Of a DNA stretch of 64,000 nt, positions 12,188 through 17,414 are shown one piece after another (within the stretch, counting starts at the first letter, position 1; every line of letters starts with the position of its first letter). Source of the DNA: Lachnospiraceae bacterium (lineage in GTDB: Bacteria; Bacillota; Clostridia; Lachnospirales; Lachnospiraceae). The notes under the pieces are model-generated. The model was not told where the DNA came from. It did not search any database and saw nothing but the letters and a program-made list of their open reading frames with translations. A program made the translations under genes and the position numbers. The stretch lies in NCBI GenBank assembly GCA_900768755.1, contig CAAGDV010000025.1:39355-103354 (forward strand), read 5' to 3'.

Positions 12188-12361
12188 CACGAGACCCCTA
12201 ATGCGTGTCACCATAACAGAAATCGTCCTCACGGAAAATAGAATTCCGGGGGACGATTTACTTAACTATACAGGTATAGTGTTCCGGGGATTTAAAAGAG
12301 TCTTTATAGGCTCTTCCGATTGGAATGTGAGTGTCATGGATATCAATGTAACGCCCATGAA

Positions 12362-12973
12362 TCATGCGAATGTAATTTGAGTTAACAATATACGATTTGT
12401 GGAACGCAAAAAGTAAGTGCACTTTTTCTTAAGGCGTGCATAAAGTGAGCCAAGTGATTCATTTACTTCAATCAGTTTACTGCTGTTCGTGTGAATAATG
12501 ACCTTGCGGTTGATGGATTCCAAATACACAATATTATTCACAGAAACAGATTGTGTATTTCTGTTACACACAATCCGGATCATGTTATTGTCTGAATCGA
12601 GTCTGCATATTAGTTTATTCATAACATTAGCAAAATCATCGTGCGATACAGGCTTTGCAAGAAAATCAAACGGATGCAGTGAAAACAACCGGGCAAGATT
12701 ATCGGTGTGAGAAGATACAAACACAATATATATATTCTCATCAACATCTATTTCTCTTAATGACAGACCGATGGTGTAACCATCAATTTCAGGCATCTCA
12801 ATATCAATAAAGACAATATCATACAGCTTGTCATTACGGCAGGTGTCGATAAAACATTTCCCGTCGGAATAAGCATCAATAACGGCGTTATTAAGATTCG
12901 GCAGCCGGCGAATGAATTCGAAAAGAGTCTGATATAAATAAGGCTCGTCACTAACAATTGCGATATTGTACAT
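12362..12973 (-). CDS. LytTR-family response regulator (REC + LytTR), orphan
   Basis: REC: MYNIAIVSDE…IVFIDIEMPEIDG…FLAKP. C-terminal LytTR-like region (IVYLESINRKVIIHT…FLRS). ATG at 12973 with RBS aaggaggga. The tracked ORF has a spurious N-terminal extension. Confidence 0.75.
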   Translation of the reverse strand: MYNIAIVSDEPYLYQTLFEFIRRLPNLNNAVIDAYSDGKCFIDTCRNDKLYDIVFIDIEMPEIDGYTIGLSLREIDVDENIYIVFVSSHTDNLARLFSLHPFDFLAKPVSHDDFANVMNKLICRLDSDNNMIRIVCNRNTQSVSVNNIVYLESINRKVIIHTNSSKLIEVNESLGSLYARLKKKCTYFLRSTNRILLTQITFA

Positions 12974-13341
12974 AAATCCCTCCTTACATAAAAATATAAT
13001 ACTATAAATTATGGATTGTTGCAATATCAGGATCAAAAATTGTTTTGACACGTGTAGATGGTTGTTTGCACATGTTAAACTGTCGTTTGTACCATTTCGC
13101 ACACAAGCGGACGATATTGTGATATAATAACTTAATAGATACATAACGGCAGTAGACATATTTCATATGCATAAAGACTAACTATTAAAAGTCAAGTCTT
13201 AAAATGATATTTTTGAATAAAGTACAGAAATGTATTTTAGATATATTTTGAACTCAGTTGGAGTTCTTTGTTCTTTGAAAACTGCATGACAAAAAGAGCA
13301 TCGTGATAGGTGCTCAAAAAGGAGTATGGAATTAGAATTGA

Positions 13342-14517
13342 TTAAGCCGCTTTGATGTATTGTTGATTCGATTTCTCAAGATGATAAATGACTCGAACCA
13401 GTTTTTTTACAGCATGTGATATGGCGACGTTATAGTGTTTACCTTCTGCTCGTTTTTTGGCGAGATAGGCTGCAAAAGTTGGATCCCAATGACAGACGTA
13501 TTTAGCTGCGTTGTACAAAGCATACCGAAGATAACGAGAACCTCGTTTTTCCATATGTGCGTAAGCACTATCCAGTTGCCCAGATTGGTATGTAGATGGT
13601 GAGAAACCGGCATAAGCCAGGATTTTATCTGGAGAATCAAAACGACTGAAATCACCAATCTCAGCAATAATCATAGCACCCATACGATAGTTAATTCCTG
13701 GTATGCTAAGAATTGGAGAATTGATTTCATCCATCATGACTTTGATTTCATTTTCGATTTCATCAATTTCTGAATCAAGTTCCTGAATTAACTTGATGGT
13801 GTGTTTCAGCTCCAGTGATTTTGCCGGCATATTTGAGCCGATAGAAGCTCTGGCGGCTTCTCTAAATGTAATAGAAGTATCTTTACCATATCGGCCTTTA
13901 GAAGCTTCTGAAAGAAGATTGGTAAGCCGGGTAAGATGAGCAGTAGCTACTTGTTTAGCGCCGGGAAACTCAGATAGCATTGCATATACGGATGCCATAT
14001 GAAGTGTCGGTACTAGTTTTTCTAATTCAGGGAATAAGATACAGACAAGTCTTGAAACGGAAGTTTTCAGTTTGGCACGCTCTTTTACTTTATCAAAACG
14101 ATAACGAGTTAATGACTTTAGCTCTTCGTTGTGATAAGATATGTCTGAGTAGGACTTTAAGTTCACATCAGACATCAGCATAGAAGCAATCGTGCGGGCA
14201 TCTACTTTATCCGTTTTCGTCTGTCTAAGGCTTAGACTTTTTCTGTACAGATTTGTATGTAACGGATTGATAACATAGGCGGGCAAACCTTTATCAATGA
14301 GATATCCTAGAAGATTGTAGCTATAGTGTCCTGTGGCTTCCAGTCCTACTTTTACTTTTGTTACATCTTCCATAACGGATTCAATCTTTCGATAAAGTTC
14401 ATTGAAACCATCTAGGTTGTTAGCGATGGGAAATGCTTTAAATAACACTTCTCCATCAGAATTGGTGATGAAGCAATCATGCTTATCCTTGGCAACATCA
14501 ATTCCTACGTAAATCAT
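13342..14517 (-). CDS. IS110-family transposase (DEDD RuvC-like N-terminus + C-terminal Tnp domain)
   Basis: MIYVGIDVAKDKHD…LEATGHY…, 391 aa. RBS aaggag (revcomp of ctcctt at 14524-14529). Confidence 0.9.
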   Translation of the reverse strand: MIYVGIDVAKDKHDCFITNSDGEVLFKAFPIANNLDGFNELYRKIESVMEDVTKVKVGLEATGHYSYNLLGYLIDKGLPAYVINPLHTNLYRKSLSLRQTKTDKVDARTIASMLMSDVNLKSYSDISYHNEELKSLTRYRFDKVKERAKLKTSVSRLVCILFPELEKLVPTLHMASVYAMLSEFPGAKQVATAHLTRLTNLLSEASKGRYGKDTSITFREAARASIGSNMPAKSLELKHTIKLIQELDSEIDEIENEIKVMMDEINSPILSIPGINYRMGAMIIAEIGDFSRFDSPDKILAYAGFSPSTYQSGQLDSAYAHMEKRGSRYLRYALYNAAKYVCHWDPTFAAYLAKKRAEGKHYNVAISHAVKKLVRVIYHLEKSNQQYIKAA

Positions 14518-14529
14518 AATAAATCTCCT

Positions 14530-14830
14530 TTGAAATGTATTTGATACTGTTTTAGAACCACAGGTGCTCCTTGCGATTGTAACCTCGTTCTAAATAAACC
14601 GTCATGCGGTATCTAACTGATTAACAAATGAACAAAGAGACTGTGGTTGGAGCCTTTCCTAAACCATCTGGTGGTAGGAGAAGTAACCAATCCACAGCAT
14701 CTTATATATCATAGTCTAACCTACGGAAGAGGTAAAGAAGAGACTATGACTTAATAGTATTAAAGACCTTGGAGAGGGTCTCTAAAAACTACTACTATAT
14801 AATACGAGGGAGGATTTCTTTTCACTTAAG
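14530..14830 (-). ncRNA. candidate IS110 bridge (seek) RNA in the 5' non-coding region of the transposase
   Basis: Long stem ctgtggttgg…ccaatccacag (14640-14698) and hairpin agaccttggagagggtct (14765-14784). The position matches IS110-subgroup bridge-RNA placement. Confidence 0.35.
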
Positions 14831-14863
14831 CTGCATTATGTGAGGGATGAGTTGGTGGAAGCA

Positions 14864-14889
14864 CATGTGGAGTAATTATATGTGGAGTA
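14864..14889. repeat. 11-nt direct repeat atgtggagtaa x2
   Basis: Copies at 14864-14874 and 14879-14889, separated by ttat. Confidence 0.6.
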
Positions 14890-14891
14890 AC

Positions 14892-14999
14892 TATCCTTCT
14901 GTGGGTACGTTCGCACTTATGTTGGAAACGTAGCGGACACTAAGATTGCAAAATACGCAATCTAAGTGCCGACGTTTCCAAAAAACCCACAGAAGGATA
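14892..14999. repeat. triple-nested perfect inverted repeats (cruciform/REP-like element)
   Basis: Outer 15-bp arms tatccttctgtgggt/acccacagaaggata. Middle 10-bp ttggaaacgt/acgtttccaa. Inner 6-bp gattgc/gcaatc. Confidence 0.8.
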
Positions 15000-15009
15000 A
15001 TTACATCCC

Positions 15010-15100
15010 GGGCTGTGCAAAGCGGAGGGATATTGGCACCTGAGGGTACGCAAAACGGAGGGACAATGATATCTCTGGGTGTGTGATGCGGACAAGCATT
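15010..15100. repeat. three degenerate ~30-nt tandem repeats (gYRcaaaRcggaSggaNa…)
   Basis: gtgcaaagcggagggatattgg, gtacgcaaaacggagggacaatg, gtgtgatgcggacaagcattgg. Confidence 0.5.
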
Positions 15101-15129
15101 GGAATGCTTCGATGTGGCGTTGGTATATT
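15099..15129 (+). promoter_or_regulatory. putative arsC promoter (extended -10)
   Basis: -35 TTGGAA, 19-nt spacer, TGgTATATT. Confidence 0.35.
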
Positions 15130-15154
15130 AAAAATGTTTTAAGAGGTTTTGATT

Positions 15155-15565
15155 ATGGATAAGAAGAGAGTGGCATTTATCTGTGTGCATAATTCCTGCA
15201 GAAGTCAGATTGCGGAGGCGCTCGGAAAACATCTGGCAGGAGATTGCTTTGAGTTTTATTCTGCCGGAACGGAGATAAAGCCTCAGATTAATCAGGATGC
15301 TGTAAGGCTTATGAATGAAATCTATAATATCGATATGGAGGCCAATGGTCAGCACAGCAAGCTCGTTGCAAAACTTCCGGAGATTGATATTGCAATCGCC
15401 ATGGGGTGCAATGTCGGCTGCCCGTTTGTTGGACGGCCATTTGATGACGACTGGGGTCTTGACGACCCGACCGGCAAATCGGATGAGGAGTTTCGACGGG
15501 TTATCAGCCGGATAGAGGGAAAAATTTTGGAGCTCAGAAATCATATTACAATGCAACCGAGATGA
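15155..15565 (+). CDS. arsC: arsenate reductase (LMW-PTP family, thioredoxin-coupled)
   Basis: CVHNSCRSQ (CX5R P-loop), downstream Cys pair …DWGLDDP…. RBS aagagg. ATG at 15155. Confidence 0.8.
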   Translation: MDKKRVAFICVHNSCRSQIAEALGKHLAGDCFEFYSAGTEIKPQINQDAVRLMNEIYNIDMEANGQHSKLVAKLPEIDIAIAMGCNVGCPFVGRPFDDDWGLDDPTGKSDEEFRRVISRIEGKILELRNHITMQPR

Positions 15566-15655
15566 TGATTTTGAGCAGATAAAAGGAAAAAATCTGTTTC
15601 ACACTTTTTGTCCAGAAATGGTCAGAAACGCTGTAAATATTTTGGAGGAAATGAT

Positions 15656-15751: not shown

Positions 15752-15917
15752 TTGCAAACCCCAAAATCTTTCCATGACATGACTTAAATAGCATTTTAAA
15801 CCAAAAAAGAGGGAGATTGACAGAAAATACCCCCTAAAAGAGGGGTGAAGGGGGTGAGATGGGTTTGGTACTATATACTCAACAAAGGGAAAACACTTTA
15901 TGTATGGAGGGAACATA

Positions 15918-17414
15918 ATGAAAACAAGAGCAATGAAGAGAATCGTATCTTTTGCATTGACAATGGCTGTTGCAGTAACAATGATTGCAGCAGGATTTAT
16001 TACAAAAGCTAAGGCTGATGTGAATGTATTCGAGACATATCTTGATGATTTAAAGTATACAGGCAAGTTTGTTGTATACGCTGACACATTTTTTCAGAGA
16101 TGCCATATCGACGGAAATATCGCAGTTAATTCTCTTGAAGAAGCGGCAGAGGGAATCAAGTCGCCTGTCAACTATTACTCATATGTTGCCGATGGAAACG
16201 GAAAGAGTTATTCATACCTTAACGGAAATACATATCTTTTCGGAAACAATGTTTTGCCGGGCAATCTTAACGGCGGAAGCAGATATATGAATCTTAACGG
16301 AAACACAAATGCTGCATCAATTATTGCAAAAGAAATGGGTCTTAGTTCTTCTAAGGTGGCTAAAGAAATCGAAATCAGAGATATGCTTGGCACAATCAGT
16401 GCGGCATCTGCTGCAGTAAGAAAAACAATGAGCACCGGGTACACAGGACTTGCAGCACTTAACAGAGTAAACACCTCCGCTACATATAATTATATATTCG
16501 CAACAGTACAGGACATCGCTAATTCAGAGTTTATCAAAGCAGTTGACAGATATACATCAACAGTTCTTAACGGAACCAACAAGGTGCTTGTTATCATGGT
16601 AATTCCGAATGCACAGACAGCATCAATTAACTTCAATGAGCCGATGAACGGAACAGCAGGATATTCCACAGCATCAGGTAACCTTATCTGGGATTTCGCA
16701 GACTTCACAGGTTCAGTAGTTATCAATGCAACAGCAGACGGTGTATTTGTAGCACCGAACGGAAGCGTAGTTAACAATGCACCGGTAGACGGAAGAATCG
16801 TTGCCAAGACAGTTGAGCAGCAAGGACAGGAGATTCACTATCCTATCGGCAGCATGGAGTGGGAGAAAGAGACAACAACAGAAGCTACAACCTCAACAAC
16901 GGAGGAAGCAACCACAACAACAGAAGAGGTAACTACAACAACAGAGGAAGCAACCACAACAACAGAGGAAGCAACCACAACAACAGAAGAGGTAACTACA
17001 ACAACAGAGGAAGCAACCACCACTACAGAGGCTACTACCACAACAACAGAAGCTGCAACCACAACAACAGAAGAAGCTACTACGACAACAGAAGCTGCAA
17101 CCACAACAACAGAGGAAGCAACCACCACTACAGAGGCTACTACCACAACAACTGAAGAAGCTACCACCACAACAGAGGAAGAGACAACAACAGATGAGCC
17201 TGCTACAACAAAGAGCGGCGAAGTTGAGGCTGACGAGGAGACAACCACAACAACAGAAGAGCGTACTACTACAAGAAGGGGTGGCGAAGTTGAGGCTGAT
17301 GAGGAGGCCAACACAGGTGACAGCGGAATGCTCGAAGTATATAGCATTCTTATGGTAATCTCAGGATTTGGTGTTGCAGGACTCGGAGCAGTCGCTTTCA
17401 TCAAGAAAAGATAA
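15918..17414 (+). CDS. cell-surface protein with signal peptide, Thr/Glu-rich tandem-repeat stalk and C-terminal TM anchor
   Basis: MKTRAMKRIVSFALTMAVAVTMIAAGFITKAKA signal. (TTTEEATTTTEEV)n repeats. C-terminal …NTGDSGMLEVYSILMVISGFGVAGLGAVAFIKKR with no LPXTG. RBS ggaggg. Confidence 0.7.
   Translation: MKTRAMKRIVSFALTMAVAVTMIAAGFITKAKADVNVFETYLDDLKYTGKFVVYADTFFQRCHIDGNIAVNSLEEAAEGIKSPVNYYSYVADGNGKSYSYLNGNTYLFGNNVLPGNLNGGSRYMNLNGNTNAASIIAKEMGLSSSKVAKEIEIRDMLGTISAASAAVRKTMSTGYTGLAALNRVNTSATYNYIFATVQDIANSEFIKAVDRYTSTVLNGTNKVLVIMVIPNAQTASINFNEPMNGTAGYSTASGNLIWDFADFTGSVVINATADGVFVAPNGSVVNNAPVDGRIVAKTVEQQGQEIHYPIGSMEWEKETTTEATTSTTEEATTTTEEVTTTTEEATTTTEEATTTTEEVTTTTEEATTTTEATTTTTEAATTTTEEATTTTEAATTTTEEATTTTEATTTTTEEATTTTEEETTTDEPATTKSGEVEADEETTTTTEERTTTRRGGEVEADEEANTGDSGMLEVYSILMVISGFGVAGLGAVAFIKKR
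16868..17185 (+). repeat. in-frame tandem ~36-nt coding repeats (Thr/Glu/Ala)
   Basis: Repeated acaacagaggaagcaaccacaacaaca units. The antisense ORF 16838..17404 is an artefact of the repeats. Confidence 0.85.

Follow-up and report, generated by a model that had tools for sequence, protein, structure and literature searches.

An IS110-group insertion sequence with a putative bridge RNA in its left end, located between arsC and a LytTR regulator gene of a gut Lachnospiraceae-type bacterium

IS621 of Escherichia coli is an IS110-group insertion sequence (IS) that works with a bridge RNA (Durrant et al. 2024, PMC11208160; Hiraizumi et al. 2024, PMC11208158). Published bridge RNAs present a variable first loop for the target, followed by a conserved second loop for the donor, with the 5′ side of a loop corresponding to the left arm plus the core and the 3′ side being complementary to the core plus the right arm; the promoter of IS621 is split across the circle junction (PMC11208160). 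According to the handshake rule, the bases beside the core complement form pairs with the non-cognate DNA at its position 7 (PMC11208158). In the IS1111 group, exemplified by ISEc11, the seekRNA is placed downstream of the transposase gene (Siddiquee et al. 2024, PMC11187229), and for IS900 of Mycobacterium avium subsp. paratuberculosis, also of the IS110 family, the target motif is CATGNNNNNNTCTCCTT (PMC8141618). The current study concerns an element of this family in a stretch of 64,000 nt from a Lachnospiraceae bacterium (contig CAAGDV010000025.1, positions 39,355 to 103,354), hereafter called the window, in whose positions all coordinates are given. The element lies, as an initial annotation of the same DNA correctly had it, between a regulator gene (12362-12973, minus strand) and arsC (15155-15565, plus strand). 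Based on the collective evidence presented below, positions 13175-14808 of the minus strand are understood, with a probability of roughly 90%, as an intact IS110-group insertion sequence that carries a bridge RNA in its left end.

The reading begins with the ends of the element. These were set by aligning the flanks of copies in unrelated contexts, at first 14 and then 84 loci (loci of relatives bear the labels L001-L109), and the same ends were recovered in the 84 loci. The DNA common to the copies starts with ..C/CTCGTATTATATAG and stops at TTGACTTTTAATAGTTAGTCT/TT... (slashes mark boundaries), the dinucleotide CT is invariant at both junctions of the relatives, and the bases just outside the cores that appear to be shared among copies represent conserved target sequence. 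The termini of the element are CT/CGTATTATATAG... at the left and ...TTGACTTTTAATAGTTAGT/CT at the right; they are not inverted repeats. The guide loops described below have CT on their 5′ side and AG on their 3′ side at the positions that match the core. The left end comprises 291 nt (14518-14808) and the right end 167 nt (13175-13341), and no second copy or solo end is present in the 64-kb window. It was this alignment with other copies, advocated in the initial annotation, that corrected the interval 13250-14870 given there, in which the left end was overshot by ~60 nt and the right end fell short by ~75 nt. The same annotation had counted more than 350 nt of structured non-coding DNA upstream of the transposase gene; structured DNA does exist there, yet only the 291 nt belong to the element, and the remaining ~340 nt between the left end and arsC are host DNA with an unrelated palindrome. 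The RNA structures (14577-14795) all fall inside the left end, which begins at 14808, hence inside the IS and not beyond it.

The transposase gene, the prospective bridge recombinase, encodes 391 amino acids and matches both IS110 domains of Pfam (PF01548, 2.7e-41; PF02371, 4.8e-22) as well as the NCBIfam model NF033542, "IS110 family RNA-guided transposase", with 210.6 bits against a cut-off of 140. The N-terminal DEDD RuvC-like domain and the C-terminal Tnp domain with the catalytic serine were both found. When aligned in two segments to the structure of the IS621 recombinase (8wt6; E 4e-22), the protein places D7, E60, D103, D106 and S312 opposite the catalytic D11, E60, D102, D105 and S241 of IS621 (residues from PMC11208158; the chain numbering of the PDB entry is offset by +2), so that the DEDD-type IS110 transposase recognised in the initial annotation is borne out with both domains and all five residues in place. 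The identical protein is encoded on at least 14 contigs, and it occurs at several different sites within the same samples, from which it follows that the element has been active recently. Gut metagenomes contain thousands of relatives at ~93% protein identity, and isolates and metagenome-assembled genomes contain relatives at 80-97% identity, mainly of Lachnospiraceae (Agathobacter, Roseburia, Blautia, Lachnospira, Kineothrix).

The left end folds more stably than each of 200 shuffled sequences (200/200), with z = -4.1 for 298 nt and z = -4.4 for 226 nt. The predicted fold has two 5′ hairpins, termed SL1 and SL2, that are followed by two stem-loops with internal loops, of which the first is variable and the second conserved among relatives, as in the two-loop layout of bridge RNAs that had been anticipated for this DNA. 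The imperfect stem formerly noted at 14640-14698 is real, pairing CTGTGGATTGG with CCAACCACAG between 14641 and 14697, and constitutes the target-binding loop; the small hairpin at 14765-14784 is equally real and forms the tip of the longer SL1. For structural conservation, 62 distinct left ends were aligned and six helices were specified, for which 93.5% of the cells are paired, compared to 25-46% when the partners are slid. Doubly changed cells number 82 against 26.6 in shuffles, and the covariation score was reached by none of 500 shuffles. The outer stem of the target-binding loop is paired to 98.4%, and three of its pairs show exchanges of both partners (UA>CG, 5 times; GC>AU, 5 times; GC>UA, 13 times), and its inner stem is paired to 99.2% with two compensatory pairs, while the donor-binding loop is nearly invariant in the 62 sequences and paired to 98-99.6%. 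The lower values for helices 1 and 2 of SL2 (86% and 76%) are explained by the alignment, which puts sequences having only SL1 into the SL2 columns. Left ends of relatives occur with SL1 only (~247 nt), with SL2 only (~245 nt) or with both in tandem (~292 nt); the window copy belongs to the tandem form, in which two alternative 5′ modules seem to have been fused. RAGATH-35 was considered for the left end, scored 19.4 bits against a threshold of 38.9, was absent from 12 relatives and was judged a chance match. Separately, the part of the left end with the guide loops (query 154-337) is ~72% identical to two Lactococcus plasmids (NZ_CP117408.1, NZ_CP141718.1), one of whose matches has no annotated feature beneath it, and this similarity suggests related bridge-RNA regions in distant Firmicutes.

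The evidence that carries the assignment of guide function lies in the agreement of the loop bases with the DNA into which each copy is inserted. The bases of the target loop vary, with 53 distinct natural target guides in the lineage, and they do so together with the flanks. In one subtype, the loop sides CTTCCTC-CT and TTAGGAA-AG accompany flanks such as TTTCCTC/CT and CT/TTCCTAA; in another, ATTTTTC-CT and TTACGAA-AG accompany CTTTTTC/CT and CT/TTCGTAA. Across 55-57 unique guide-flank pairs, comprising 32 distinct left and 22 distinct right guides, the left guide and the left flank have 4.91 of 7 positions in agreement, compared to 3.43 (sd 0.14) after shuffling, and the reverse complement of the right guide agrees with the right flank at 4.72 of 7, compared to 3.42 (sd 0.11). 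None of 10,000 shuffles was as high in either case. The signal of the right arm is limited to the first five bases. With the 12 informative positions combined, cognate pairs reach a mean of 8.9 and non-cognate pairs a mean of 6.2 (sd 1.7).

The donor loop relates to the termini of the element in a corresponding manner. Its right guide is the reverse complement of CTCGT at the left end, and where the left end has changed to CTTGT the loop reads AACAAG (L066, L085), and where it has changed to CTAGT the loop reads AACTAG (L095), which makes two distinct compensatory changes in three genomes. The handshake rule is followed as well. All 69 distinct cases allow pairing at both handshake positions: the target-loop base with the final base of the left donor arm (G.T 64, A-T 3, T-A 1, T.G 1), and the donor-loop base with the final base of the left target flank (G-C 62, A-T 3, T-A 2, G.T 2), where separate lineages have switched from the usual G-C, Galacturonibacter copies to A-T, and L068 and L087 to T-A. 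These observations bear directly on a different explanation of the left end, according to which it is a structured 5′ leader only, acting as an attenuator or masking the ribosome-binding site, and has no part in the choice of target or donor. The left end is contiguous with the coding sequence and would hence be co-transcribed with it, and a downstream CCTGTGG offers the 3′ strand of the target-loop stem an alternative partner when the whole leader is folded to its minimum free energy. A leader of this kind does not, however, predict internal-loop bases that track host flanks at independent sites, nor a loop base that changes in step with the terminus of the element, nor the handshake rule, and we consider it extremely improbable. 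The bridge-RNA candidate of the initial annotation is supported instead, by the ends, the two loops, the covariation of guides with flanks and the compensation in the donor loop.

A sigma-70-type promoter appears complete only across the junction of right end and left end in a circle. The right end contains an outward-facing -35 box and the left end a -10 box, both of them kept in relatives at 80-97% protein identity; in the circle junction, ...TTAGT-CT joined to CGTATT..., the spacer from TTGACT to TATTAT is exactly 17 nt. Once integrated, the element has at the -35 position the hexamer AAGTGA, which matches poorly. The promoter rebuilt at the circle junction, as the initial annotation envisaged it, is therefore present at the level of sequence and kept in more than 80 relatives; transcription would start near 14792. 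As a separate observation, a perfect TATAAT is found on the plus strand at 14798-14803, directed outward at the neighbouring gene, and this is due to the palindromic nature of the -10 region in the left end. An outward promoter toward the neighbour was considered on that basis and set aside as speculation, for there is no usable -35 box ahead of the TATAAT. The terminator-like hairpin after the transposase gene has a conserved stem and a variable loop in relatives; the terminator scanner passed over it on account of a loop longer than 8 nt.

Transcription, binding of the RNA by the protein, circle formation and the chemistry of recombination are proposed here from the work on IS621. Upon excision, the element would circularise, and the joining of right end to left end would create the promoter TTGACT-17 nt-TATTAT. 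From it, a bridge RNA of ~215 nt would be transcribed from the left end, with the transposase gene behind, and in this RNA a pair of 5′ hairpins would precede two stem-loops with internal loops. The 5′ side of the target loop (CTTCCTC-CT in sister copies, ACTTCTC-CT in the window) corresponds in sequence to the left target flank and the CT core and would thus pair with the bottom strand, while the 3′ side (TTAGGAA-AG) would pair with CT and the right target flank on the top strand. The donor loop would read the ends of the element likewise, AGTTAG.. against the terminus of the right end and AACGAG against CTCGT of the left end. The RNA-bound DEDD/serine recombinase, employing D7, E60, D103, D106 and S312, would then exchange strands at the CT core.

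Several observations weigh against this interpretation. The left donor guide has only six contiguous matches, with its last base and the core not cleanly paired. A search of the region 12500-15600 against Rfam 15 (E <= 10) returned chance-level matches and no bridge-RNA match, and the left ends of 12 relatives likewise matched no family of this release, for which these searches do not establish whether it contains any bridge-RNA family. The relatives share ancestry, so that the shuffle statistics overstate independence somewhat. Lastly, the site ATCCTCC/CT/TTATGCA of the window copy agrees with its own guide at 4 of 12 positions and with the sister guide at 5 of 12, compared to the mean of 6.2 for non-cognate pairs; a match no better than chance means that the guide model alone does not explain how the window copy arrived at its place.

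The targets encoded in the lineage have a common character. They share the centre C(T)C-CT-TTCT, and the flanks follow the pattern CAT, then 7-9 nt, then (C)TC/CT/TT. An open reading frame (ORF) of at least 60 codons starts within 20 nt of 40 of the 58 unique left flanks (mode 9-13 nt), compared to 4 of 65 right flanks. Of the 53 distinct guides, seven agree with TCACCTCCTTTCTA, the 3′ tail of 16S rRNA, at 12-13 of its 14 bases. The encoded target resembles CTCC-T-TTCT, a complement of the Shine-Dalgarno sequence, and copies are accordingly inserted 9-13 nt ahead of start codons and point away from the gene. IS900 was reportedly described as targeting translation initiation signals, by Doran et al. 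in 1997. Among the papers searched, none ties Shine-Dalgarno targeting to the guides of bridge RNAs. It is tempting to suggest that in this Lachnospiraceae lineage the target loop became, in the course of evolution, a mimic of the anti-Shine-Dalgarno tail of 16S rRNA and, jointly with this, that the distal positions of the guide can be dispensed with in vivo; we put this combined idea forward tentatively, at slightly less than even odds. If true, it would mean homing to ribosome-binding sites across the genome, thus to degenerate and abundant sites in place of one unique sequence, and it would give an explanation at the RNA level for the long-known targeting of translation signals by elements of the IS900 type. 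The match of the window copy at the central C-CT-TT alone would then show the distal positions to be dispensable. Insertion ~10 nt upstream of starts parts genes from their promoters and could affect expression in common gut Lachnospiraceae. Besides this, the right end of a relative in Extibacter muris (L087:2931-3192) is found ~100 nt from a signal recognition particle RNA gene (RF01854, 196 bits).

Against this background, the window copy is intact but atypical. Its left target guide has a deletion of 1 nt (TTACTTCTCCT compared to TTACTTCCTCCT), by which it reads ACTTCTC-CT where sister copies read CTTCCTC-CT; the deletion is present in L014 and absent at the same locus in another sample (L011/L021). 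Among 58 guide-flank pairs its match is the lowest bar L093 (2/12, with doubtful ends), and the agreement with the flanks is confined to the central C-CT-TT. The left flank, read outward, gives GGAGGA, yet no ORF follows, and the start of arsC is 340 nt away, past the palindrome. A register shift of one base, by which the left flank TCCTCC would be compared with the guide, was tried and dismissed; it predicts a junction other than the one observed and does not rescue the match. The pre-insertion site is reconstructed as AAATCCTCC-CT-TTATGCA. An IS-free allele was searched for in several ways, and none was found: all contigs obtained with the exact proteins (regulator and ArsC) either contain the element or end within it; a gapped pattern joining both flanks was not found in the metagenome collection; a scan for related loci with the regulator gave only relatives of <=38% identity; and a large protein search gave one cluster at 100% and nothing else above 40%.

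How the window copy came to its site is a matter of its history and leaves the identity of the element untouched. We lean slightly toward a copy that is stranded or off target, having inserted at a poorly matched site by way of only the central C-CT-TT and the handshake bases or having been altered after insertion, possibly through the guide deletion, gene conversion between copies or rearrangement of a flank. A site match near the worst of the 58 cognate pairs speaks for this, together with the lack of a gene start by the left end, which distinguishes the copy from the 40 of 58 relatives, and the lack of the guide deletion at the same locus in L011/L021. Better sites were to be had within the window (one at 10/12 and two at 9/12), and half-matched and off-target insertions of IS621 are documented in a preprint (bioRxiv 10.64898/2026.08.31.748434). 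On the other hand, C, CT and TT at the centre do match, so the insertion may be within tolerance, and the pre-insertion sequence is itself a reconstruction. Recombination between copies would keep each flank matched to its own half of the guide, which is not seen.

The order arsC-IS-regulator could in principle have arisen as an assembly chimera through collapse of the repeated element. Short contigs (L014, L020) connect the same right flank to other left flanks, the reverse is seen also, and such contigs show that assemblers change path within the repeat. Both junctions were nevertheless found again in 3-4 independent metagenome samples at 99.9-100% identity, that of arsC with the left end in L027-L029 and that of the right end with the regulator in L022-L024, which are separate samples, and a contig of 107 kb has the same order. 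A chimera is thus very improbable, and the arrangement in the window is not an assembly artefact. The other left flanks in L014 and L020 were considered as a rearrangement, and this was rejected in favour of path switching by the assembler, which is probable given that the samples of L014 and L020 also hold the arsC junction. Cases in which one flank is joined via the element to differing opposite flanks recur among the relatives (L002/L007; L014/L020/window; L016/L019/L020); they reflect recombination between copies or path switching, with the samples of the window locus favouring the latter. Contigs of 1.57-1.64 kb that comprise only the element have the look of collapsed repeats and not of evidence for circles.

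Regarding the neighbouring regulator, the ORF of 203 amino acids (12362-12973) has a receiver domain and matches the LytTR profile at positions 5-50, below the cut-off, while LytTR positions 48-94 are found in another frame at 12258-12422 (23.0 bits compared to a cut-off of 22.6). The nearest full-length homologues comprise 236-240 amino acids and are at most 40% identical. The same product of 203 amino acids is called in six contigs from several samples, and the LytTR gene (12258-12973, minus strand) looks frameshifted in the population. The initial annotation was right that the element lies directly upstream of the regulator on the same strand, at 200 nt, and it had added that the element may have displaced partner genes of the regulator or may now drive it. 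In favour of this, no sensor kinase gene adjoins, and the outward -35 box of the right end is positioned 15 nt from the core. The hexamers 16-18 nt past this box (TATGCA, ATGCAT, TGCATA) match at no more than 3 of 6 positions, however, and a promoter scan called none; a terminator-like hairpin follows the transposase gene; three promoter-like sites (13036-12996) closely precede the start of the regulator and do not belong to the element; the right-end side shows no association with gene starts in the lineage (4/65); and the regulator is split by the frameshift. Control by the element is not upheld, displacement finds no support from the search for an IS-free allele described above, and taken together we judge them very unlikely.

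In the host DNA on the other side, a nested palindrome extends over 14887-15004, with outer arms of 20 nt that are 95% complementary and inner arms of 10-12 nt. It is followed at ~15020-15080 by direct repeats CAAA(G/A)CGGAGGGA. Beyond arsC, an ORF of 504 amino acids (15900-17414), for which Pfam gives no match, contains a long tandem repeat rich in Thr and Glu (15 copies with a 21-nt period) and, toward its C-terminus, a hydrophobic segment.

Table 1. Features of the IS110-group element and its insertion site, in window coordinates
Feature	Position	Strand	Basis or remark
Whole IS110-group element, CT core to CT core	13175..14808	-	1634 bp; >80 copies in different contexts
Left CT core	14807..14808	-	CT invariant at both junctions of relatives
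Right CT core	13175..13176	-	flank alignment of copies
Transposase / putative bridge recombinase gene, 391 aa	13342..14517	-	PF01548, PF02371, NF033542
-35 box TTGACT, right end, outward-facing	13190..13195	-	nearly invariant, 84 loci
-10 box TATTAT, left end	14799..14804	-	nearly invariant in relatives
First 5′ hairpin SL1	14754..14795	-	predicted fold
Second 5′ hairpin SL2	14709..14749	-	predicted fold and pair count in relatives
Target-binding loop	14641..14697	-	10-bp outer stem with bulged A, internal loop, inner hairpin ACCA-CCAGA-TGGT
Left target guide and core, ACTTCTC-CT	14676..14684	-	guide/left-flank covariation
Right target guide TTAGGAA and core complement AG	14654..14662	-	guide/right-flank covariation
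Candidate target-loop handshake bases GC	14652..14653	-	pairing rule of PMC11208158
Donor-binding loop	14577..14627	-	outer stem TTGTTAATC/GGTTACAA, internal loop, inner hairpin ACCG-CATGA-CGGT
Left donor guide AGTTAGAT	14611..14618	-	six contiguous bases match right-end terminus AGTTAG-TCT
Right donor guide AACGAG and handshake G (14583)	14583..14589	-	reverse complement of left-end CTCGT
Terminator-like hairpin after transposase gene	13291..13315	-	GAGCA, 10-nt loop, TGCTC, then TTTTT
Left target flank ATCCTCC, host DNA	14809..14815	-	2-3/7 guide matches; resembles Shine-Dalgarno complement
Right target flank TTATGCA, host DNA	13168..13174	-	3/7 guide matches, 2/5 informative

The ends and the RNA parts of the element can now be placed to the base, and the "non-coding" DNA upstream of the transposase gene should be annotated as a gene of a guide RNA, not as a regulatory region of arsC or of the LytTR gene. 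The 53 variants of the target loop with their sites, the compensations in the donor loop and the switches of handshake bases constitute a set of natural variation from gut Firmicutes. The known working principles of IS110 elements, a class described in 2024, are unchanged by these results; some interest lies in the fact that the guides of the lineage are directed at Shine-Dalgarno sequences and that the window copy occupies a poorly matched site.

Among the described systems, IS621 is one of the closest. Both elements have a DEDD and serine recombinase with the same five catalytic residues, a CT core at both ends, a guide RNA (putative for the window element) in a long left end and a promoter sequence split across the circle junction; in both, a variable target loop precedes a conserved donor loop under the same strand rule, the signal of the right target guide reaches ~5 nt past the core, and the handshake rule is followed. 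The protein similarity is only distant (E 4e-22), and the recombinase of the window has 391 amino acids with a longer linker, compared to 326-328 in IS621. The window element has two tandem 5′ hairpins where IS621 has one, and its RNA is predicted at ~215 nt compared to 177 nt. The lineage targets the Shine-Dalgarno complement whereas IS621 targets a repetitive extragenic palindromic (REP) sequence, and the window element resides in a gut Lachnospiraceae-type bacterium. With IS900, the lineage shares orientation-specific insertion in the complement of the ribosome-binding site at a fixed short distance from the start (40/58), but the host belongs to a different phylum, the window copy is without an adjacent gene start, and no long antisense ORF like "hed" is present (antisense ORFs of at most 67 amino acids). 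The IS1111-group elements have in common with it the transposase superfamily and an element-encoded RNA that matches both strands of the target. Their strand-matching segments are arranged in the reverse order, whereas the guide loops of the window element are located upstream and show the order of the IS110 type; membership in the IS1111 group was discarded for the reason that the loops covarying with the flanks are upstream of the gene, not downstream.

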